From: an uncultured bacterium
Lineage (GTDB): Bacteria; Muiribacteriota; UBA9980
Direction: 5' to 3'
Assembly (NCBI GenBank): GCA_964436235.1
Contig: CAYTCW010000008.1
Coordinates: forward strand, 2,006 to 55,734
Length of the DNA: 53,729 nucleotides
The position numbers were made by a program, and so were the translations under genes. This document shows positions 31,792 to 53,209 of this stretch, piece after piece (within the stretch, counting starts at the first letter, position 1; the number at the start of each line of letters is the position of its first letter). The notes under the pieces are model-generated. The model had not been told where the DNA came from, ran no database searches, and was given only the letters and a program-made list of their open reading frames with translations.

Positions 31792-33531
31792 CTAAGCCGC
31801 TTCGGCTTCCTGTGATTGATCTATTTGAGCTAACGGGTTATTTATAAGCGATAGGTTGTAACTGCGCTTGATTTGAGCATTGCCGCGTACCTTCGACGGG
31901 AAGGCGGCCTCGAGTCCGATAAGAATACTTGTGACTGTCGGGAATTCCTCGTCGAGGATCCTGATAAGCGACTGCATATATGGAACATAAACGCTTTCCA
32001 TGTCATCAACGACGATGAAGTTATAGCCGCTCAGTTTAGCGATCGCGAGCTGAAGCGCGATACCGCAGAGAATCCGTTCGGAGGTCGAGAGCATGCCGGG
32101 CGTTTTTCCGTTGATTCTGATGTTGGCCAGATCTCCGCCGGCCGCTTCAATCACGAATCCGAAAGTCTTCGATACTTCGTTAACCATGTCGAAAAGACCT
32201 TCGCTGTTTCCAGAGACGATTTTTTCTTTAAGGTCTTTTTCAAGAAACGCAATATAACGATCGTAGCGCTTCGAATTAGCTTCGAGGGTCATTACTTCCT
32301 CGGCGAGTGCTTTCGCCTTCGCCTGTGCCTCGCCGCGGCGTTTTATATCGACCATAGCGATATTAATTCCGTCGAGCTGTACGCGCAATTCGTTCATGCC
32401 CTTCATGGCTTCCAGATTACGGCGTTCGACTTCGGCCTTTGCGGCGTCATATTTCTCGTTTTGTTCTTCAATCAGGCGGTTAAGTTCATCGAGCTGTTCC
32501 TGGCGGGACGCTTTATATTGAGCGAATGCCGCCGTATCTTCCGCGCTGAGTTTTTCCCATTCGGCCCGAAGCGCTGCTGTTTCATTGTTAAGTTTCATAA
32601 CGTATTCAGCGAGCGCCGGTTCATTGCATGTGATTTTACCCTGACTTAGGGGGCACTTGCCTTCGTGTTTGTTATAAGCGGTTATCGTTGATTTGTGCGC
32701 GGTGCCTATGGCCGCAGTTTCGGCGAGCCGGCGGGCGTGTTTCGGTTTAAAATCGCCGAGCTCGATAGTTTTTTTCTTGTCCATAAGTTCGAGCCAGCGG
32801 GCCGAGCGCTCCGGAAATTTTTCGGGTTCATAAGCCATTTTCAGCTTAGCTTCGAGTATCTGTTTATCGTTCTCGAGTTTTTCGATCGAACGGTCATTGA
32901 TGACGGTCCGTTCCTTCATAGCACTGTTTATGATCTCGATTTCGGATTTGGCGCGTTCGAGCTGCTTGTTTACCGTGTGCCTTATCTGCCGGAAGTTTTC
33001 GGCCGTGGCTTTTATGTTTGATGCACGCAGGCCTTCGAAGTCTTTAGCTTCTTCACTACTGATTCCATATTTTACGACATCTATCAGCTCGTCTCCGGAG
33101 AAATAGTTCATCAGGAGATCTGCCTGTTCTTTGGCCGTGAGTTCGAAAAAGTTTGAGTTGTCGCAGAGCATCTGAATGACGTTGCGTTTGTATCCAAACT
33201 CGGCGAGCCCGTCCTTTTCTTTAGTGCGGCCGACCTCGAGCTTAACGCCGTTTAGTCTTAATTTATGCGGCTTCGGTTCGCGCTCGATGCTGTGCGTCAG
33301 GCCTTCGAAAGTCGTTATCACGGCCGTTGAGCATTTCGCGCCGTCGGCTAAGCGGATTATTTCTTCAACTTCTTTTTTATCAGGCGTAGCGGTGAGCGCG
33401 TATCTGATCGCCTGTTTAACGCTCGATTTTCCGCAGTGGTTCGCACCGGTGATGATGTTAATGCCAGGCTGGAATTCAAAACTTTTGTCTTCGTACCCCA
33501 TGAAATCTTTTACTATGAGTTTATTTATCAT
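31792..33531 (-). CDS. SMC/RecF/SbcC-like AAA ATPase (recombination module)
   Basis: Walker A ITGANHCGKSS, a long coiled coil, and Walker B NFIVVDDMES. I prefer the ATG at 33531 with SD AAAGGTGA. Confidence 0.7.
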   Translation of the reverse strand: MINKLIVKDFMGYEDKSFEFQPGINIITGANHCGKSSVKQAIRYALTATPDKKEVEEIIRLADGAKCSTAVITTFEGLTHSIEREPKPHKLRLNGVKLEVGRTKEKDGLAEFGYKRNVIQMLCDNSNFFELTAKEQADLLMNYFSGDELIDVVKYGISSEEAKDFEGLRASNIKATAENFRQIRHTVNKQLERAKSEIEIINSAMKERTVINDRSIEKLENDKQILEAKLKMAYEPEKFPERSARWLELMDKKKTIELGDFKPKHARRLAETAAIGTAHKSTITAYNKHEGKCPLSQGKITCNEPALAEYVMKLNNETAALRAEWEKLSAEDTAAFAQYKASRQEQLDELNRLIEEQNEKYDAAKAEVERRNLEAMKGMNELRVQLDGINIAMVDIKRRGEAQAKAKALAEEVMTLEANSKRYDRYIAFLEKDLKEKIVSGNSEGLFDMVNEVSKTFGFVIEAAGGDLANIRINGKTPGMLSTSERILCGIALQLAIAKLSGYNFIVVDDMESVYVPYMQSLIRILDEEFPTVTSILIGLEAAFPSKVRGNAQIKRSYNLSLINNPLAQIDQSQEAEAA

Positions 33532-33793
33532 TCGATTCACCTTTCTTTTTAAATCCGTCACACTCCGCAACGTTATCGTTTCCAAGGCCACATCCAAAAG
33601 TAATATTTTTAGCGGAGCATGTAGGAAATTCTTGAATGCATGCTTCACAAAGATGAGTTTCTTTCATGTATTTTTCCAACGCTTCTTTGTATTTTTCTTC
33701 GCCTTCTGGTAAACACCACCCGCTGGGTTCGTCGTCAAATCCGCAGCACTGATGCCAGCCGTATTCTTCCGGTAATGGTTTTTTATTTTTCAT
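33521..33793 (-). CDS. Cys-rich hypothetical protein
   Basis: 90-aa ORF with several cysteines (CC, C.P, CEAC, C, C, C). Confidence 0.4.
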   Translation of the reverse strand: MKNKKPLPEEYGWHQCCGFDDEPSGWCLPEGEEKYKEALEKYMKETHLCEACIQEFPTCSAKNITFGCGLGNDNVAECDGFKKKGESNDK

Positions 33794-33803
33794 TTAACGC
33801 TCC

Positions 33804-35000
33804 TTAAAACGGCGCTTTTTCGCCGGTTGTCGCTGTTGTTTCGGTTTGAGCAGCCGCGGCCGCTTTGGGTTTGTTTTCTGGCGCCGGTTTTTGTTTCATT
33901 CCGTCAATTTCATCAACGATTTTTCTAAGATCGCCGTCGTGTTTTATGATGATCGGAGTGAAGTCGGCGGGAGCCAATCGCTTAACCATTATTATAGTTT
34001 TAAGCGGGTGACTTTTAGCCAGGAGCGCTTCGATTCGTTCGTTCGTCCATTCGTTCGTTTCGGGTTCGCTTGTTTGGGGTTCGGCCGCGCCTTCGGTTTC
34101 GTCTGCCTTCGCGGGGCCTTCGAGCAACGCCGCGGGCTGATTTTCGTCCATAAGCGCGGGAACTTCGAACATATCCGGCGCGATTTCTTTTTTAATTTTT
34201 TCATCGGTTTCGAGTTCTTTAGCAAATTCGATTGATTTCGGAGCGTATTTAAGCAGCGCTTTCAAAACCGTCTTTTTCGCCATACCGATAAAATTGTTTA
34301 CCCAGGCGCATTTATCGCCGCCAACCCATTCGCCTTTATCGGCGTTCCAGAGGTCGGAATATTTCTTAGCGTGCGCGGTGATCTTCGAAACCGGCCAGAC
34401 CTGAAAGTCGAAACCGCCGTTTTTAGTGTGATATACGGCGTAAATATGAGTAAGTTCGCCGCGGTCTTCCGTTTCACATGGCCTGTGTTCAAGATCGCGT
34501 TTAAGACCGAGTTTGTAATAAAAACTGTCGTTCGAATAAACTTCTTCGCAGTAGAGATCGAGATAACTGCCGGAACGATAAGCCAGATCAATAATACCCT
34601 GATAACCGAGCTGGAACTGTGCTAACTTTATTTTAATCCATTGGCCGTTTGGCATTTTAATGCTTTTTTTTCTCGGGATAAGATATGCCTGGCCGAGCGG
34701 AGTATTAAGTTCAACGCCGAGTTGGGCGCCGGTCATTATTCCCGCCAGAAGGCTGTCGCGTTCACATTCAAGCAACTCCGGATTAATCTTTATGGCCGTG
34801 AGAGCGATACGCGCTACGCGGTCCGGGCTGACGTGCTTAGGAACCGCTTTCGAGATCGAGGGGACCATTTCTTTTATGAAATCGTTTATTGTTTTGTTAG
34901 GTTTAATCGTCGGAGCGGTTGCCGAAGCGTTTCCCGCCGCCGCCTGTGCCTTATTCATTAACGCCGTGTTATTTCCGTTTACGTTCGCCATATTTATCAC
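33804..35000 (-). CDS. recT: RecT-family single-strand annealing protein
   Basis: ..ALTAIKINPELLECE..SLLAGIMTGAQLGVELN..QAYLIPR..AQFQLGYQGIIDLAYRSG.. The start is either GTG at 35000 or ATG at 34991. Confidence 0.85.
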   Translation of the reverse strand: MINMANVNGNNTALMNKAQAAAGNASATAPTIKPNKTINDFIKEMVPSISKAVPKHVSPDRVARIALTAIKINPELLECERDSLLAGIMTGAQLGVELNTPLGQAYLIPRKKSIKMPNGQWIKIKLAQFQLGYQGIIDLAYRSGSYLDLYCEEVYSNDSFYYKLGLKRDLEHRPCETEDRGELTHIYAVYHTKNGGFDFQVWPVSKITAHAKKYSDLWNADKGEWVGGDKCAWVNNFIGMAKKTVLKALLKYAPKSIEFAKELETDEKIKKEIAPDMFEVPALMDENQPAALLEGPAKADETEGAAEPQTSEPETNEWTNERIEALLAKSHPLKTIIMVKRLAPADFTPIIIKHDGDLRKIVDEIDGMKQKPAPENKPKAAAAAQTETTATTGEKAPF

Positions 35001-44812: not shown

Positions 44813-45019
44813 ATGACGCATACAAGAACTTTTTATTTATTTAACGAGCCTTCTTTTTTCAGTGGAATGTCTCGCACCATGGATATTGGCGGAACCTTTA
44901 ATTCTTATAATAATTCTAAAACACCTGAAGAAGCAGATATACGCGCCTTACAACTCGATTGGCTCTGCGTAGGCGACGATCTCGTTTATGCCATCAATAA
45001 AGGTAAAGAATCGGAATGA
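44813..45019 (+). CDS. Hypothetical small protein (68 aa)
   Basis: ATG at 44813 with SD GAGGAGG. Its stop overlaps the start of the next gene (ATGA). Confidence 0.5.
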   Translation: MTHTRTFYLFNEPSFFSGMSRTMDIGGTFNSYNNSKTPEEADIRALQLDWLCVGDDLVYAINKGKESE

Positions 45020-45453
45020 CTAACAAAAGCCCTATTTTGAAAGACAAAAACAAACCACATTTAATTCAGCAACAATCTGCTTTTTATCACGGGCCGATTC
45101 CGCCCCCTGAAATTTTACAGCGATTTGAGCTTATTCAACCCGGATTCGCCGATCGTATTTTAAAAATGGCAGAAACCCAGGCGGCTCATCGTCAACACCT
45201 TGAAAAATCTGTTATAGAATCGGACATTTCGCTGGCGCATAAAGGGTCTCTTTTTGGTTTTTTAATCGGCCTTGCAGGTATGGTTACCGCCGCATATTTT
45301 GCTCATCTCGGCCACCCCGGCTACGCCACTTTATTTGGTGGCACTACTTTAGGCGGTCTAATCAGTATTTTTGTTTATGGTAAAAAAATGCAAAAACAGC
45401 AACTTGAACAAAAACAAGCCGAAGCAGTCGTGCCTTCAAAGATTAATCAATAA
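45016..45453 (+). CDS. DUF2335-like membrane protein
   Basis: YHGPIPPPEILQRFELIQPGFADRILKMAETQAAHRQHLE, followed by two TM helices. Confidence 0.6.
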   Translation: MTNKSPILKDKNKPHLIQQQSAFYHGPIPPPEILQRFELIQPGFADRILKMAETQAAHRQHLEKSVIESDISLAHKGSLFGFLIGLAGMVTAAYFAHLGHPGYATLFGGTTLGGLISIFVYGKKMQKQQLEQKQAEAVVPSKINQ

Positions 45454-45465
45454 AAAAATATAAAA

Positions 45466-45774
45466 TTGTCAACGATTGAAATCACACAGCCCCGAGTTCG
45501 AACGCGGGGAGTAGAGCCAACAATTTTATTAATTCACGGCTGGCGCTTTTTCTTTTACTCCAACGAAGGAAGCGAGCCGATTCATGTTCATTGCCAGAAA
45601 GGCGACATGGAATGTAAATACTGGTTGAACGTCGATTTTATTGACATCGAGGAAGATTATTCGTATAATATGGGGCCGAAGGACAAACGCGATGTAAGAA
45701 AGATCATATTTGCATATTTCGAATTTATAGAAACTCAATGGAATAAATTTCAGGAGGAACGCCGCCATGAATAA
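45466..45774 (+). CDS. DUF4160-like protein
   Basis: ..GWRFFFYSNEGSEPIHVHCQKGDMECKYWL.. TTG start with no clear SD. Confidence 0.5.
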   Translation: MSTIEITQPRVRTRGVEPTILLIHGWRFFFYSNEGSEPIHVHCQKGDMECKYWLNVDFIDIEEDYSYNMGPKDKRDVRKIIFAYFEFIETQWNKFQEERRHE

Positions 45775-46021
45775 ACGCCATGAAATTACTGACTTGAAAA
45801 TTGAAAACGAAAGCCTGATAATCACGATAGACGGCCAAACCAGAGAGTTTAAACTTGAAGATGTTTCGAAAAGGCTTGCTGGCGCATCCACCGTTGAACG
45901 CTCAAACGTCGTTATATCGCCTTCCGGTTACGGTCTTCACTGGCCGCTGATCGACGAAGATATTTCAATCGACGCACTGCTCGGAATTTCTCATAAGTCT
46001 AAACTCAATAAGGCCGCCTGA
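45767..46021 (+). CDS. DUF2442-like protein
   Basis: ..ITDLKIENESLIITIDGQTREFKL..ISPSGYGLHWPLIDEDISIDALLG. 8-nt overlap with the DUF4160-like gene. Confidence 0.55.
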   Translation: MNKRHEITDLKIENESLIITIDGQTREFKLEDVSKRLAGASTVERSNVVISPSGYGLHWPLIDEDISIDALLGISHKSKLNKAA

Positions 46022-46662: not shown

Positions 46663-46861
46663 ATAGCGCGATCGGCAGACACGAGGGAGGCGGGGAAGCG
46701 GCGGGAACTTGACAATGATCGTAAATAGTAATATAGTCTGGCGGTATCGCATATAATCGAAGGCAATAATAAAATTTCGAAAGAATAAATTATGTTAATT
46801 GAAGAAAAAGTTTTTTTTAAAAATATAATGACGCTTTAATTTATATACATAAAATTTCCCC

Positions 46862-46890
46862 TTGACAAACGCTACTACTAAATATATAAT
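46862..46890 (+). promoter_or_regulatory. Perfect consensus sigma70 promoter upstream of the methylase/ATPase pair
   Basis: TTGACA, 17 nt, TATAAT, 30 nt upstream of the ATG at 46920 (SD AAGGAGG). Confidence 0.6.
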
Positions 46891-46919
46891 TAAATATATT
46901 TTATATTCAAGGAGGCGCC

Positions 46920-47771
46920 ATGCCCAGAACTCCCAGCCCTTTACGATATCCGGGCGGCAAAACAGTTTACGCATCGATGATATCAGAAATAATCCAGGAA
47001 AATAATTTATCGGGCTGTTCCTATGCAGAGCCTTTTGCGGGTGGGGCCGGCGCTGCCATTACGCTATTGTTAAACAATCAAGTCAAAGATATTTGGTTAA
47101 ATGATTTCGACTATTCCATTTATGCTTTTTGGTATTCGATTTTAAAAAGAACAGATGAATTTATTCAAAAAATTATTTTTACCCCTATTACAATCAGTGA
47201 ATGGAAAAAGCAAAAAGCAATATATACCAATAAAAGCGTTAAAAAAGATATACTTTCAATTGGCTTTGCAACTTTTTATCTTAACCGATGCAATCGAGCC
47301 GGAATTTTATTGGCCAACCCCATTGGTGGCATTAACCAAACCGGTAAAGATCAAATTGACGCCAGATTTAAAAAAGAAGTATTAATTTCTAAAATCAAAA
47401 AAATTGCACAGCAAAAAAGTCGGATACATTTATTTAATCTCGACGCGATTGATTTTATTGACGTTATTAAAAAAGAAACATCAAAAATCATGGTCTATTT
47501 TGACCCTCCTTATTATAAAAAGGGAGAATTATTATATTTAAATTTTTATCGTCACAACGATCATAAAAAACTTTCAAAAAAAATCATTAATTCTAAATTA
47601 ACGTGGTTACTTTCTTATGATGACCATCCCGAAATAGTTGATCTGTATAACAAATTTCCGGTTTACAAAAGAAGATTACATTACTCAGTGTCTAATTCAT
47701 CTTGGGCTCAAGAATTAATAATTAGCAACCTAAATATTCCCAAAAATTTAAGAGGTCAAAATGCCAGTTAA
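46920..47771 (+). CDS. Dam-family (D12 class) N6-adenine DNA methyltransferase
   Basis: SPLRYPGGK, EPFAGGAG, NRCNRAG, and YFDPPYY (DPPY catalytic motif). Confidence 0.85.
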   Translation: MPRTPSPLRYPGGKTVYASMISEIIQENNLSGCSYAEPFAGGAGAAITLLLNNQVKDIWLNDFDYSIYAFWYSILKRTDEFIQKIIFTPITISEWKKQKAIYTNKSVKKDILSIGFATFYLNRCNRAGILLANPIGGINQTGKDQIDARFKKEVLISKIKKIAQQKSRIHLFNLDAIDFIDVIKKETSKIMVYFDPPYYKKGELLYLNFYRHNDHKKLSKKIINSKLTWLLSYDDHPEIVDLYNKFPVYKRRLHYSVSNSSWAQELIISNLNIPKNLRGQNAS

Positions 47772-49482
47772 CGAAGGAATAAAAGTTACAAAAATTAAAA
47801 TTGATAAATTTCGCAGATTCGAAAATATTGAATTTGAAATAGGCAAAAATATCACTCTAATTTCAGGTCAAAATGGTACTTCAAAATCTACATTATTGGG
47901 CATGCTCGCTCAACCTTTTTCGTTTGGAGTAATTCAAGGCGAAAAAGCACGCAAACCCGACAATTCAAAATATACAAGTAATTATCACGGTATTAATTTG
48001 GCCGAAAAAATTGATTTAGCGGAAAAACCTTTTGCATATGATTGTGAAGATGTTTTTCGCTTATCGACTACTCACGATTCGATTCAAAAAAACTATGTTT
48101 ACAAACTATACTTATCAGGTAATTGTATCGAACCCGACATTATAAAAAATGGACTTTTAATCCGGACTCAAGCGCGACCCAAAAAACGCAATGAAAAAGT
48201 TGCACGTATTCGATTTGTAACCAGTCCTGGTTCAAAATCAAGTAGCGGAGCCGGAGAAGGCAATTTCCCGCATCCTGTAATTTATTTTGGGTTAAATCGT
48301 CATTGGCCAATGGCGCTTTTAAAAAAAGTTACAGTGGAGCTTCATCAAGGAATGGACAAACAAGATGAAGAATGGTTTACTGAAAAATATAAAGATATTT
48401 TACTCCTAAATCAAGAGCAACATCGGCTTGAACAAATAAAAACCGATTTTGGAGCAAAAAAAAATTTGCTTAGTGCTGCCGGTTGCGATTATGATGGTGA
48501 AAGTTTATCTGCTGGGCAAGATAACCTTGGTCAAATTTTAGCCGCCGTTCTTTCTTTCAAGCGCCTTAAGAAAGATTTGGGACAAAAATATCAAGGTGGG
48601 CTAATTTTAATTGACGAAATCGATTCGACGTTACATGCTTGGGCCCAAATTCGTTTATTTGAATTATTATCCGAAGTTTCTAAAGAGTATCAATTGCAAA
48701 TTGTCGCTACAACACACTCGATGTTTTTGCTTAAACATGCTTTTCAGTCAAGTTTAAGAAAAGATGTGAAAGTAATATATTTAAAAAGAGAAGATAACGG
48801 CATTGTTGATAGTGGTTTTAGTTCGTTTGAAGAAATAGAAAATAACTTAACGGTTCAGTTCAAACCCAAAATCCCCAAAACCGTTTCAAAGATTTCATAT
48901 ATTTTTGAAGATAACATAACAAAAGAAATGTTTTTTGGAATTATCGGCAATTCGCTTAACAAATATTTTAAACTTCATACGTTAAAATCTATAAGTGCCT
49001 GTACGTTAGCGAGTATTGCATACCTTAAAGTACCAGAGTTCAAAAATGTTTTAATGGTTGTCGATGGAGATGTAAGATCTAAAATGCCTAAAAACATTGA
49101 AAATTTAATTATCTTGCCTGGAAATCATAGACCAGAAACGCTATTATATCTTTGTCTTAGAGACTTAAAAGATTCAGATCAATTTTGGAAGAATTCTAAT
49201 TTTACCGGCTATTCAAAACAAGCTGTTATTGGCACATATCAATCACAGCTTGATAAGGCGGATTTAGATTCTGATGTGGATAAACCCAAATTTAAAGCTT
49301 GGTATGATAAACATAGAAAATGTTGGGGAATTAAAAGTAACATCGCTTTTCAAAAATGGGCCGAAATCAATAAAAACGAATGTAAACAATTTTGTAAATC
49401 GTTTTTTGAAATTCTCAATAAAATATTACATGGTCGCATTTCAAAAGCCGAATACGATAAAATTTTTAAAAAATATTCATAA
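47761..49482 (+). CDS. ABC-type (OLD/AAA_15-21-like) ATPase with a C-terminal Toprim-like region
   Basis: Walker A GQNGTSKST, signature LSAGQ, Walker B LILIDEIDSTLH, H-loop VATTHS. The C-terminus has IFEDN ... VVDGDVR ... LPGNHRPE. The start overlaps the methylase stop by 11 nt. Confidence 0.7.
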   Translation: MPVNEGIKVTKIKIDKFRRFENIEFEIGKNITLISGQNGTSKSTLLGMLAQPFSFGVIQGEKARKPDNSKYTSNYHGINLAEKIDLAEKPFAYDCEDVFRLSTTHDSIQKNYVYKLYLSGNCIEPDIIKNGLLIRTQARPKKRNEKVARIRFVTSPGSKSSSGAGEGNFPHPVIYFGLNRHWPMALLKKVTVELHQGMDKQDEEWFTEKYKDILLLNQEQHRLEQIKTDFGAKKNLLSAAGCDYDGESLSAGQDNLGQILAAVLSFKRLKKDLGQKYQGGLILIDEIDSTLHAWAQIRLFELLSEVSKEYQLQIVATTHSMFLLKHAFQSSLRKDVKVIYLKREDNGIVDSGFSSFEEIENNLTVQFKPKIPKTVSKISYIFEDNITKEMFFGIIGNSLNKYFKLHTLKSISACTLASIAYLKVPEFKNVLMVVDGDVRSKMPKNIENLIILPGNHRPETLLYLCLRDLKDSDQFWKNSNFTGYSKQAVIGTYQSQLDKADLDSDVDKPKFKAWYDKHRKCWGIKSNIAFQKWAEINKNECKQFCKSFFEILNKILHGRISKAEYDKIFKKYS

Positions 49483-49514
49483 AAATGGGTTTCCCCTTCT
49501 CAGCGTGGCTTTTT

Positions 49515-50332
49515 TTATTTACTCACCCTCCCCGCAGTAATCTCGCAGTATTCCGGACTCAACTCCGCGGCGAGCCACGGCCGACCGAGATACTCGGCAA
49601 CCTCTGCGACAGTCCCAGAGCCGCAGAAGGCGTCGAATACAATCGACTCCGGCCCGGAATACCCCTTGATTATGGTCTCGATGAGCCCGACCGGCTTCTG
49701 CGTCGGGTGAGCCGTGCGCTCCGCCCGCGGCATCGAAGACTTGTTCGGAAAGTAAAGACCGACACCGGCCAGCGCGTTCCTTTGTTCTCAGTGGCTATTT
49801 TGTTTTTCGGCGTGCAATGCTGTTGTGCCTGGTACTGAGTAAGCTTCGCCTGGCTCGCGCCGGACTTAACCTTCACATGATACGGCGCGCCGGCCGTCAT
49901 GATGTCCTTGCGGTTAAACGGCAGAAGGCTCACGCGCTTGAGTTCCTGCTTATGGAAGGCGTATATTATTTCGTGCTTCGAAGCCGGCTTAACGGCGCCG
50001 AACGCCGGGACGAAATTCGGCTTAACCCATATATATTCGAACTTCCTTTTAAACCCTGCTCTTAATGCCTCGTGCGCCATCTCGACCGTGCCGACCAGGA
50101 AGAACCAGCCGTTATCTTTTAATATGCGTTTAAACTCGACGAAGATCGCTCGGAAGTCAAGATCTGTCTTATCGAAGTCGAGGTTAGTGGTCAGCCAGGG
50201 TGGATCTGTCACGATCAGGCTGATCGTCTTATCTGGGATTGCCTTCATGAGCTCTATGCAGTCGGCGTTATAGAGCTCGCCGAGCTGGGTTTTAAAATAC
50301 GGGGTAAATTTTGAACGTACACTTTCGAACAT
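49515..50332 (-). pseudogene. Beta-class N4/N6 DNA methyltransferase interrupted by a frameshift
   Basis: ORF 49670..50332 carries LIVTDPPW (motif IV). A second frame, open from ~49780, reads ..ALAGVGLYFPNKSSMPRAERTAHPTQKPVGL..VFDAFCGSGT (motif I). The frame change lies near 49760-49790. Confidence 0.75.
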
Positions 50333-50480: not shown

Positions 50481-50717
50481 ATGCTTGAAACTGAATTTAA
50501 TTATTTTAAAGCTCATCAAGATGAACTGGTAAAAAAATATAATAATAAAATTTTAATTATTCGCGGGAACGAAGTTGTAGGAACTTTTAATAATAATAAA
50601 GAAGCCTATAATTTTGGAACCCAAAATTTTGGTTTGGGTAATTTCATGCTCCAAAAATGCATCCCAGGACCTGAAGCATATACTGTAACTATTTCTTCCA
50701 ATGTGGTGAAATTTTAA
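50481..50717 (+). CDS. DUF5678-like small protein
   Basis: 78 aa; ..FKAHQDELVKKYNNKILIIRGNEVVGTFNNNKEAYNFG.. SD AAGGAGAG. Its stop shares one nt with the next start (TAATG). Confidence 0.5.
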   Translation: MLETEFNYFKAHQDELVKKYNNKILIIRGNEVVGTFNNNKEAYNFGTQNFGLGNFMLQKCIPGPEAYTVTISSNVVKF

Positions 50718-51322
50718 TGATTGTTCCGCCAAGAGTTCATGCATTTAGATTAGAATACCCAGGCTTAACTAATAGAATTATTACTGATCTTCATATTTTT
50801 CAGGCTTTCGATCCTGACGATCATCCTAAAGGCCCACCAACACCACCAATAAAAGTAAAAGCATTGTGGGATACTGGCGCTACAAGTAGCGTAATTACAA
50901 AAGAGACCGCCCAAAAATTGTGTCTTATTCCTATTAACACCGTTAACGTCAATCATGCTGGTGGTACAAGCCCAGCTAATGCTTATATGGTTAATGTTTA
51001 TTTGCCTAACAATGTTGGAGTTCCAATGCTTCAAGTCATAGAGTGCCCAGGAACTGACGATTCCTTTGGCGCCATTATAGGCATGGATATTATTTGTCGT
51101 GGAGATTTTTCAATAACAAACACTGAAGGTAAAACGTGTGTAAATTTTTGCTTGCCTGCGATGCATAATTACAATTTTGTTAATGAGTTGAAAGAAATTG
51201 GTACGCTAAAACCAGAGGCCCATCCTAAAATTGGTCGTAACGATCTTTGCCCATGTGGCAAATTAAATTCTGAAGGACGACGTTTGAAATATAAACGTTG
51301 TTGTGGAAAAACGAATATGTAA
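50717..51322 (+). CDS. Retropepsin-like (clan AA) aspartic protease with a C-terminal SEC-C motif
   Basis: WDTGATSSVI (catalytic DTGA), GAIIGMDII, and C-terminal CPCGKLNSEGRRLKYKRCCG. Confidence 0.7.
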   Translation: MIVPPRVHAFRLEYPGLTNRIITDLHIFQAFDPDDHPKGPPTPPIKVKALWDTGATSSVITKETAQKLCLIPINTVNVNHAGGTSPANAYMVNVYLPNNVGVPMLQVIECPGTDDSFGAIIGMDIICRGDFSITNTEGKTCVNFCLPAMHNYNFVNELKEIGTLKPEAHPKIGRNDLCPCGKLNSEGRRLKYKRCCGKTNM

Positions 51323-52051: not shown

Positions 52052-53209
52052 CTATGCGAGTTTAATTATTTTGGGATCGTTTTCATCATATTTGTCGGAT
52101 AAAATTTTATCGACTACCGCCGCGCCGTTTCGGACGGTTTGAGGAAATAAATGCGCATAACGTTGCGTCGTCTTGAAATCTTTGTGCGTCAAAAGACGCT
52201 GTAGCGTATATTGATCGACCTCGCCGCTCGATGCGAGCATCGATGCGAACTGATGGCGCAGATCGTGGCAGCGGAACTTTACCGGAATGCCGACGGCTAC
52301 TTTGATAGATGCCCAGCGACGACCTATGTTATTCTTTCGCTGGCCATCATCTCCCGGAAAAACGATCTCATTATCCGTTTTTTTGTTTTGGTGCTGGCGT
52401 TGAAGTGCTTGAAATGCGCCCTCATTAAGATAAATAAACTGGTCCTTGCCGCCTTTAGGATCACGCAGGCGAATTATACGGTCGTTAAAATTAACATCGG
52501 CAAAGTCGAGCTTCAGCGCTTCGCCTAAGCGGCAGCCGGTGAAGATCAAGAACGTCAAAAGGTTGGCTGTGGTCCGATGCTGGTATATTTCAAGGTATTT
52601 CAGCAGCTCTTGAATTTTTTCGATCGGCAGTACGTTCAAAACTTCGTTATTGATTTTCGGTTTTTTGACCTTATGACATGGATTTTCGCCGGCGTAGATT
52701 CCAAGGCGGTGAGCATAATTGAACAGCAGACCCAGCTGATCGACGATATTTTTAATAGCCTTCGGGCTGTATGGCTGATGATAGCGCGTTTCGGTGCCCT
52801 TCAGCTCGATCATCATTTTTTCGATATGGAAGGGCGCTATAGCCTTTAGCGGCTTACTTCCGAACCTGTCGCGCAGGGTTTTATTGTAGCGCGTTTCTTC
52901 GCGGCGCCAGGCTTTGCCATGTGCCTTGTAGCCCTTCAGGTATTCTTCCCAGACTTCGTTCAGGGTAGGGTCTGTCTGGCGTGAGTCTTTATAGGTACCC
53001 TCAATGAGCTTCGTTTTTATTTTGGCTTCGAGCTCGCGGACAAGCGTTATATTTCCGGTAACAATTTTTGATACGGATTTTCTATTATACATAACCTGGA
53101 CCCGAAAGTCTTTATTTTTGATATCCATGACTTTTTCGCATCTCGGACATTTTTTAGCGTCGAGATCGAAAGCGATACGGCATTTTCGGCAATATAAACG
53201 AATAGACAT
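52052..53209 (-). CDS. int: Tyrosine recombinase / phage integrase with an N-terminal zinc ribbon
   Basis: CRKC..CPRC at the N-terminus. TGCRLGEAL (Arg), HDLRHQFAS (HxxR) and QRYAHL (Tyr). SD GAGGAAGG. Confidence 0.9.
   Translation of the reverse strand: MSIRLYCRKCRIAFDLDAKKCPRCEKVMDIKNKDFRVQVMYNRKSVSKIVTGNITLVRELEAKIKTKLIEGTYKDSRQTDPTLNEVWEEYLKGYKAHGKAWRREETRYNKTLRDRFGSKPLKAIAPFHIEKMMIELKGTETRYHQPYSPKAIKNIVDQLGLLFNYAHRLGIYAGENPCHKVKKPKINNEVLNVLPIEKIQELLKYLEIYQHRTTANLLTFLIFTGCRLGEALKLDFADVNFNDRIIRLRDPKGGKDQFIYLNEGAFQALQRQHQNKKTDNEIVFPGDDGQRKNNIGRRWASIKVAVGIPVKFRCHDLRHQFASMLASSGEVDQYTLQRLLTHKDFKTTQRYAHLFPQTVRNGAAVVDKILSDKYDENDPKIIKLA

Follow-up and report, generated by a model that had tools for sequence, protein, structure and literature searches.

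A prophage-borne pair of adenine methylase and OLD-like ATPase genes from an uncultured Muiribacteriota bacterium, a candidate restriction-modification-like cassette related to PD-lambda-5

INTRODUCTION

Some prophages of Escherichia coli carry a gene for an adenine DNA methylase next to a gene for an ABC-type ATPase, and a distant copy of this pair is the subject of the present analysis. The copy is a two-gene cassette in a 53,729-nucleotide stretch of DNA, here called the window, from an uncultured bacterium of the Muiribacteriota (UBA9980; GenBank assembly GCA_964436235.1, contig CAYTCW010000008.1, positions 2,006 to 55,734 of the forward strand), and coordinates are those of the window unless another locus is named. 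The cassette is probably a two-gene, restriction-modification-like (R-M-like) antiphage system carried as a moron of a temperate phage, in which a methylase of the PD-lambda-5 type is combined with a different effector. Its described counterpart is row 18 of Table S5 of Rousset et al. 2022, which lists "MethyltransfD12 | AAA_15/AAA_21" with 166 occurrences in P2-like prophages of E. coli as an "RM-like system." The main text of that paper neither discusses nor assays the cassette, and no later characterization of the pair, or name for it, was found in the literature. A first-pass annotation of the window, made from the sequence alone, did not recognize the pairing; it is in fact catalogued, although unnamed, and the methylase is of the PD-Lambda-5_B family. 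To this catalogued kind the window adds a distant member, found in an uncultured lineage.

Mrr restricts methylated DNA. A second relative of the cassette, the "ParB/HEPN, methyltransferase" system PD-lambda-5 of Vassallo et al. 2022 (PMC9519451), required a strain deleted for the mrr-containing region for its cloning, which suggests that its methylase is active in vivo. As a defense system of E. coli, PD-lambda-5 has been validated, and it protects broadly and most strongly against T-even phages (PMC9519451).

The OLD nucleases, which include P2 Old, the Thermus scotoductus OLD protein, GajA, and retron-associated enzymes, are single polypeptides with an N-terminal OLD-clade ATPase and a C-terminal acidic domain, and they include exclusion genes carried by prophages. 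Their classes differ in the neighboring gene, with none in class 1, a UvrD-type helicase in class 2, a retron reverse transcriptase in class 3, and the split AriA/AriB arrangement in class 4. The last of these, PARIS, consists of an OLD-type ABC ATPase sensor and a putative Toprim-like effector, split into an ATPase and a DUF4435 protein (or fused, with a DUF4435 signature); it has no methylase and is often borne by phages or satellites.

Two further groups of systems associate DNA modification with a nuclease. Type II and type III R-M systems place a methylase beside a restriction enzyme in mobile cassettes. PrrC, RloC, and AbiL (RloA-RloB) combine ABC-like ATPases with a nuclease, are linked to DNA-modification genes, and provide an abortive back-up to R-M.

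RESULTS

Components of the cassette

The cassette, the parts of which are listed here, contains two open reading frames, of 283 amino acids (46920 to 47771) and 573 amino acids (47761 to 49482), with an 11-nt overlap (47761 to 47771); the two genes, the length of the second product, and the overlap agree with the first-pass annotation.

46819 to 49486, plus strand: mobile cassette (promoter, methylase gene, and ATPase gene), delimited by blastn of locus L005, from bacterium UBP16_UBA6123, against the window
46862 to 46890, plus strand: predicted sigma-70-type promoter TTGACA-17-TATAAT, 12/12 consensus positions, from a promoter scan and direct reading of the sequence
46909 to 46915, plus strand: Shine-Dalgarno sequence AAGGAGG, 4 nt 5' of the methylase ATG (conserved in L005 as AAGGAAG)
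46920 to 47771, plus strand: D12-class (alpha-group) N6-adenine DNA methyltransferase of 283 amino acids, from Pfam MethyltransfD12, PADLOC, and PHROG 56
47750 to 47755, plus strand: Shine-Dalgarno sequence AAGAGG, 5 nt 5' of the ATPase ATG, within the 3' end of the methylase gene
47761 to 48795, plus strand: OLD-clade ABC ATPase head, residues 1 to about 345, from Pfam, hhalign, Foldseek, and motif alignment
48856 to 49482, plus strand: C-terminal putative effector domain, residues 366 to 573, from invariant columns, an AlphaFold2 model, and the spacing of P2 Old

The product of the first gene matches Pfam MethyltransfD12 (9.5e-20), PHROG 56 (DNA methyltransferase), and the PADLOC models MTase_II (3e-87) and PD-Lambda-5_B (PDLC04018; 1.2e-108, residues 1 to 273 against positions 1 to 273 of the 291 in the model), in agreement with its initial identification as a D12 methylase from the motifs PGGK (here within YPGGK) and DPPY. 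With EPFAGGAG, an FxGxG-type motif for binding S-adenosylmethionine, and the catalytic DPPY, it has the catalytic motifs expected of the methyltransferase in a type II R-M system and is predicted to be such an enzyme.

The product of the second gene matches Pfam AAA_15, AAA_21, and SMC_N. It has a complete ABC ATPase head, with Walker A at G36 to T44, the Q-loop at Q51, the signature motif at S250 to Q253, Walker B at D285-E286, and the H-loop at H319, and the motifs from which the head had originally been called OLD type (GQNGTSKST, LSAGQ, LILIDEID, and ATTHS) are all present. K42, Q51, S250 to Q253, D285-E286, and H319 are invariant in an alignment of 37 homologs, in which an insertion of about 190 amino acids between Walker A and the signature motif is also conserved. 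In hhalign, the head aligned with the N-terminal half of P2 Old over 282 columns (probability of 94%, E value of 1.3e-7). An AlphaFold2 model of the full-length protein (pLDDT 83) matched the Thermus scotoductus OLD nuclease 6p74 best in a Foldseek search of the PDB (E value of 2.9e-10), followed by retron PtuA and GajA, with TM-scores that were low and matches that were dominated by the ATPase head. By profile and model comparison, the head belongs to the OLD clade.

As a whole, the ATPase protein matches a phage protein family of unknown function, PHROG 3940, over its full length (4e-99). Metagenomes contain more than 700 full-length homologs of about 560 to 575 amino acids, and none of them has a Pfam domain annotated in its C-terminal third. 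The best PADLOC match was partial, to ATPase-Toprim_I-B (1.4e-19, residues 278 to 454). The similarity to Gabija, PARIS, MADS, and Septu models in PADLOC was limited to the generic ATPase head, and these four identities were rejected.

Linkage of the methylase and ATPase genes

The ATPase protein was used as the query in a survey of 4 phage records of 7 matching (Vibrio phage ValB1MD-2, Citrobacter phage phiNP, and two Streptococcus prophages), 43 genome loci at one genome per species, and 18 IMG/VR viral contigs, with neighboring methylase genes detected by tblastn with the window methylase. Such a survey had been proposed as a check in the first-pass annotation, and it bore out the co-occurrence of the two genes: a methylase homolog lies directly beside the ATPase gene in 58 of the 65 loci (4/4 phage records, 37/43 genome loci, and 17/18 IMG/VR contigs), and 3 of the 7 exceptions are cut by the contig end. 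Gene arrangement was compared across 59 paired loci: three from E. coli, the window, and those loci of the survey in which the matches were of sufficient length. The methylase precedes the ATPase in 20 of these and follows it in 37, and the genes converge in the remaining 2. The two proteins have diverged in a correlated way (Mantel p = 0.001), and the hosts of paired loci include enterobacteria, Vibrio, Streptococcus, Collinsella, Selenomonas, candidate phyla, and others, with differing insertion sites. These genomic data support the prediction that methylase and ATPase constitute a conserved functional pair.

One copy that is not paired in this way, in a Peribacteria locus (L036, 4060 to 5983), is directly downstream of a pair of genes encoding an NgoPII restriction enzyme and a C5 methylase.

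Relatives in E. coli and the PD-lambda-5 methylase family

The ATPase sequence given in row 18 of Table S5 is that of E. coli E110019 (locus L070) over the stretches compared. The L070 protein is 26% identical to the window ATPase (E value of 2e-32, residues 9 to 525 of 573), and the similarity includes FTEDEE, ILDGD, and LPGEKAPE, which correspond to the patterns FxED, DGD, and LPGxxxPE; the methylases of the two loci are 43% identical (E value of 2e-78). The window cassette thus has the adjacent MethyltransfD12 and AAA_15/AAA_21 genes of the catalogued pair, with both proteins homologous to those of E. coli, the methylase-then-ATPase order of L070, and a position in a variable region of a prophage. 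It differs in that its sequences are very divergent, its genes overlap, and it is located near an integrase gene, outside the P2 hotspot, and its closest relative (91%) is found in bacterium UBP16_UBA6123.

Pairs of the phiNP type, with ATPase and methylase, occur in 85 of 5,426 complete E. coli genomes. The pair immediately follows the prophage integrase gene in strain JJ1886. More distant relatives of the methylase occur in other strains, and in L65 one of them lies beside an ATPase homolog, next to the integrase at icd. In E110019 (L070, 3650 to 6210), the methylase-then-ATPase pair occupies the hotspot between gpA and portal genes of P2-like prophages. A study of the E. coli ST131 methylome (PMC4659465) lists a putative type II methylase of JJ1886, M.Eco1886ORF14565P, which may be the methylase of the JJ1886 pair.

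Other E. coli prophages contain a related methylase with the PD-lambda-5 partner. In NCTC9008, the methylase is beside a true PD-Lambda-5_A (PADLOC 5e-168) in the same gpA-portal hotspot, and in a lambdoid-type prophage of an O121 strain it is convergent with PD-Lambda-5_A (PADLOC 4e-74). All of the E. coli methylases compared match PD-Lambda-5_B, at 1e-114 to 1e-124, and the window methylase is about as close to the ParB-partnered E. coli methylase (45% identity) as to the ATPase-partnered one (43%, as above), so that a single methylase family is used with two unrelated effectors.

The gpA-portal hotspot of P2 was observed to hold either PD-Lambda-5_A with the methylase (L068, 2078 to 4537) or the methylase with the OLD-like ATPase (L070). 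Table S5 of Rousset et al. 2022 also lists cassettes of the P2 hotspot composed of ParBc, DNA_methylase, and a hypothetical protein and of DUF262, DNA_methylase, and HEPN. These P2-hotspot cassettes suggest a wider theme of a methylase with a swappable effector.

With PD-lambda-5, then, the window cassette shares the methylase family, the two-gene composition, and carriage by a prophage, as well as the P2 hotspot in the case of E. coli members. Its component A is another matter: in PD-lambda-5 this is a ParB/HEPN protein, whereas the partner in the window is an ABC ATPase. The 25 best PADLOC matches of the ATPase protein (115 families matched) do not include PD-Lambda-5_A, the middle and C-terminal parts of the protein have no PADLOC match, and BLASTP detected no similarity between the ATPase protein and a true PD-Lambda-5_A. 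With component B present and component A missing, the window cassette is not a PD-lambda-5 system.

The C-terminal domain

The columns that are invariant in the C-terminal part of the 37-homolog alignment are E383, D384, D435-G-D437, P453-G454, E459, and K512. They include the core of the motifs IFEDN, VVDGDVR, and LPGNHRPE, all of which are present as first described. An AlphaFold2 model of residues 366 to 573 (pLDDT 88, pTM 0.85) consists of a four-strand alpha/beta unit (beta-alpha-beta-alpha-beta-alpha-beta) followed by a helical bundle. E383 and D384 come directly after beta-1 and D435-G-D437 directly after beta-3, matching the places that PMC6755086 assigns to the Toprim Glu and DxD, and E459 and K512, invariant or nearly so, are located in helices after beta-4. 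The active site of the Burkholderia pseudomallei OLD protein is formed by E400, D455/D457, E508, and K562 (PMC6755086), an inventory paralleled in the window protein by E383, D435xD437, E459, and K512; the last two may be the equivalents of E508 and K562, an assignment made from their order only.

The spacing is also similar to that in P2 Old, with 64 versus 66 amino acids from the H-loop to the Glu and 52 versus 55 from the Glu to the DxD. In a low-stringency alignment anchored on the ATPase, which is of low confidence, the DGD falls on the DCD of P2 Old. A profile of the C-terminal domain searched against 1.84 billion representative sequences retrieved 549 clusters. Among the 150 clusters listed, most have proteins of 460 to 625 amino acids with the domain at the C terminus. 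The others hold shorter proteins, probably fragments, and the clusters listed therefore include no bridging family.

In the explanation favored here, the domain is most likely a metal-dependent nuclease. It may be a strongly diverged Toprim-like domain or a novel acidic alpha/beta domain, for which a nuclease function is plausible.

Comparison with OLD nucleases and restriction systems

The window ATPase resembles the OLD nucleases in its N-terminal OLD-clade ATPase, its single polypeptide, its C-terminal acidic domain, the order and similar spacing of E, DxD, E, and K, and its carriage by a prophage. It differs in its C-terminal domain, which has no match to Pfam OLD-like_TOPRIM and no significant profile or fold similarity to the OLD enzymes; the precomputed Pfam list assigns OLD-like_TOPRIM to all of the P2 Old homologs listed but one N-terminal fragment. 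It also differs in its neighbor. None of the partners that define the OLD classes is adjacent, and the neighboring gene encodes a D12 methylase. The interval from 46819 to 49486 encodes neither a helicase nor a reverse transcriptase, and the initial observation that a UvrD-like partner and a separate AriB are both lacking holds.

Membership in the individual systems was rejected. For PARIS, no DUF4435 match was obtained with the whole protein, the C-terminal domain, or 51 relatives, and the PADLOC matches to AriA were weak and confined to the ATPase. For Gabija, no GajB-type helicase is adjacent and the PADLOC match to GajA was weak (4e-11) and likewise confined to the ATPase.

The likeness to type II and type III R-M systems consists of an adenine methylase adjoining a putative nuclease in a mobile cassette, with the methylase first in the clade of the window. 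No known restriction-endonuclease fold (PD-(D/E)XK, HNH, PLD, or GIY-YIG) and no SF2 helicase Res subunit is present, however, and the ATPase is of the ABC type. PrrC, RloC, and AbiL lie within complete type I R-M loci and have HEPN or RloB domains, whereas the window cassette contains a type II-like methylase only, and the similarity of its ATPase to AbiLi in PADLOC was weak and confined to the ATPase.

Extent, promoter, and base composition

Locus L005 and the window are 90% identical in nucleotide sequence over exactly 46819 to 49486, and the similarity detected by blastn stops immediately outside this interval, which therefore marks the bounds of a mobile cassette with its promoter included. 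On this comparison, the cassette moves as a unit carrying its own conserved promoter. The perfect TTGACA-17-TATAAT promoter that had been reported in the first reading is present at 46862 to 46890 and is the sole 12/12 match within the 4.2 kb scanned. Its -35 and -10 hexamers and their spacing are identical in L005, and the spacer, upstream, and flanking DNA differ; the sequence is predicted to be an active promoter. A near-consensus promoter, TTGACA-17-TATAGT (11/12), is found 150 bp upstream at 46709 to 46737 (plus strand), in a 136-bp segment (46684 to 46818) in place of which L005 has about 1.2 kb with extra small open reading frames.

Translational coupling had been proposed from the overlap of the two genes. 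The overlap is real in the window, but among methylase-first loci it is found only there and in L005, and translational coupling is therefore not a trait of the family. In the other methylase-first loci, 18 to 109 nt separate the matched stretches, as measured between the ends of tblastn high-scoring segment pairs and not between gene ends.

The GC contrast described earlier is partly upheld. The cassette is at 31 to 32% GC, and the module has a GC content of 25 to 39% in 200-bp windows and about 31 to 34% in 1-kb windows, close to the 32% first given. The structural genes are at about 43 to 53%, mostly 45 to 50%, and not at a flat 50%, and the abutting gene is at 55 to 60% (200-bp windows) and not 67%. 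The AT-richness also extends beyond the module, over the whole accessory block from 37 to 51 kb.

The abutting gene encodes a DNA methylase of the N6_N4 class (49515 to 50332, minus strand) and is split into two open reading frames of 220 and 72 amino acids, apparently by a frameshift. It is convergent to the cassette, which is at 31% GC, and is absent from L005.

Prophage setting

The window encodes tail fiber J, tape measure, major head, portal, and large terminase proteins, a RecT-like protein, and an integrase (52052 to 53209), and by this gene content it is the genome of a temperate tailed phage, a prophage similar to siphoviruses of the lambda J type. The cassette is located in an AT-rich accessory block on the plus strand, about 2.5 kb from the integrase gene, together with a DUF4160/DUF2442 pair, a DUF2335 protein, and an aspartyl-protease/SEC-C protein. 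Its setting in a prophage accessory block near the integrase gene is typical of defense genes, as are the P2 defense hotspot and the integrase-proximal end of the prophage that the E. coli pairs occupy.

The DUF4160 and DUF2442 genes overlap (45466 to 46021, plus strand) and lie about 1 kb upstream of the cassette, and the gene for the DUF2335 membrane protein (45016 to 45453) is just 5' of them. Between the cassette and the integrase gene, a gene at 50717 to 51322 (plus strand) encodes a 201-amino-acid protein with a retropepsin-like aspartyl protease domain (DTGA) and a C-terminal SEC-C-like CPCG...CCG. A second ABC/SMC-type ATPase of 618 amino acids (SMC_N, AAA_23) adjoins the RecT-like annealing protein (31792 to 33648 and 33804 to 35000, both on the minus strand). 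The two probably constitute a phage recombination module, and this ATPase resembles that of the cassette in head motifs only.

DISCUSSION

In the explanation considered probable here, that of an R-M-like defense cassette, the product of the first gene would be an active m6A methyltransferase that marks the resident DNA of host and prophage. The OLD-clade ATPase would act as an ATP-driven sensor or switch that senses or translocates, and on incoming DNA lacking the methyl mark it would license the C-terminal domain to act as the effector, a metal-dependent nuclease. The R-M-like logic suggested by the first-pass annotation remains the most economical reading of the linkage, the residence in prophage hotspots, and the methylase family in common with PD-lambda-5. 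Its two central elements, self-protection by methylation and a nuclease, are inferred, and a DNA rather than tRNA substrate, like antiphage activity as such, would be further predictions of the same explanation.

Several results weigh against this explanation, beginning with the C-terminal domain. Residues 340 to 573 alone had no Pfam or PADLOC match, and a profile of the domain had no match among PDB sequences. An hhalign comparison of the C-terminal alignment with a 30-sequence alignment of P2 Old C termini gave a probability of 0.2%. Foldseek searches with the model of residues 366 to 573 returned nothing significant from the PDB (best E value of 0.14) or from BFVD (best E value of 0.055), and in both databases alike no Toprim protein was among the 50 best matches listed; the best were weak matches to nucleases of the FEN and DHH types, at E values of 0.05 or worse. 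The methylase-free homologs add to this. Four homologs (L033, L035, L036, and L044), from Sulfurovaceae and bacteria of the candidate phyla radiation, are truly solitary; they are distant, are about 490 amino acids long, and have no methylase, and the ATPase is therefore not universally dependent on it. Classical R-M rarely stops T-even phages, against which PD-lambda-5 is most effective, so the restriction of unmethylated DNA may be too simple an account. No experimental test of any member of the ATPase family was found in the literature. Toprim effectors of the OLD family can also be tRNases and not DNases, as described for PARIS (PMC11464382) and for P2 Old, which has been reported to be an abortive tRNase (bioRxiv 10.64898/2026.07.10.737580).

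The resemblance to Toprim/DUF4435 nucleases that had been suggested initially is an interpretation from the order and spacing of motifs that found no statistical support, and the fold was not confirmed by Pfam, PADLOC, Foldseek, or hhalign; the structural check proposed along with it, by model and fold search, gave no significant Toprim match. A Pfam census of 51 diverse relatives produced a single weak OLD-like_TOPRIM_1 match (1/51; E value of 0.015) amid noise. On balance, we lean toward a Toprim ancestry for the domain.

The most serious competitor, although an unlikely one, is an abortive-infection guard that would compact "RM + Abi" into two genes. The ATPase protein would be a sentinel like PARIS, PrrC, or P2 Old, held inactive by, or monitoring, the methylase or DNA methylation, and interference by a phage would lead to cleavage of tRNA or other RNA and arrest of the infected cell instead of restriction of phage DNA. 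OLD-clade ABC ATPases are the sensors of PARIS, the reported activity of P2 Old is of this kind, HEPN domains are typically RNases, and solitary homologs without a methylase exist. Such a guard would also fit the "RM+Abi" remark of Vassallo et al. 2022 and the strength of PD-lambda-5 against T-even phages. However, neither the substrate nor the trigger can be read from the sequence, the cassette has no separate restriction enzyme to back up, and self-marking accounts at least equally well for how closely the methylase and ATPase are inherited together.

A complex resembling type III enzymes is somewhat less likely still. In such a complex, the methylase would supply recognition and the ATPase-nuclease, with no specificity of its own, would work only when bound to it, as a new class of ATP-dependent R-M. 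The ATPase protein has no recognizable DNA-recognition or classical restriction-endonuclease fold, and the genes are tightly adjacent and, in the clade of the window, overlapping. The service of one methylase chassis to two unrelated effectors would also be easier to explain if the methylase were the recognition module. Against this, the physical interaction that it requires is purely hypothetical, the insertion of about 190 amino acids in the head could itself bind DNA, and gene order and spacing are variable. It is very improbable that the genes are two independent morons sharing an insertion hotspot, an orphan methylase countering host restriction and a stand-alone OLD-like exclusion protein: prophage hotspots do gather unrelated cargo, prophages commonly carry an orphan D12 methylase (PMC4659465), and a few ATPase homologs are solitary, but adjacency in 58 of 65 loci from many taxa at differing insertion sites, in three arrangements and with co-diverging proteins, excludes chance co-location.

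A broader proposal is put forward tentatively and is more doubtful than the preferred R-M-like explanation. The cassette could represent a new class of methylation-linked immunity in which a methylase chassis of the PD-lambda-5 type, self-marking and perhaps providing recognition, is combined with interchangeable effectors, here an OLD-like ATPase with a diverged Toprim-derived or new nuclease domain. As far as the literature found allows a comparison, two elements are new: how broadly the two genes are linked among phyla and phages, and the swapping of the PD-lambda-5 methylase chassis between ParB/HEPN and OLD-like ATPase effectors.

The cassette is widespread in prophages, yet PADLOC 2.0 has no model for its ATPase. 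If the new-class reading is true, the effector would be either an ATP-dependent restriction enzyme, and with it a fifth class of OLD nucleases that has a methylase as its partner, or a methylation-sensing abortive tRNase. The occurrence of one methylase family with two effectors is a natural experiment on the ways in which a methyl mark may be joined to different killing modules. The pair also bears on whether the substrate of OLD-type enzymes is DNA or tRNA, a question for which homologs are at hand in E. coli JJ1886 and E110019.

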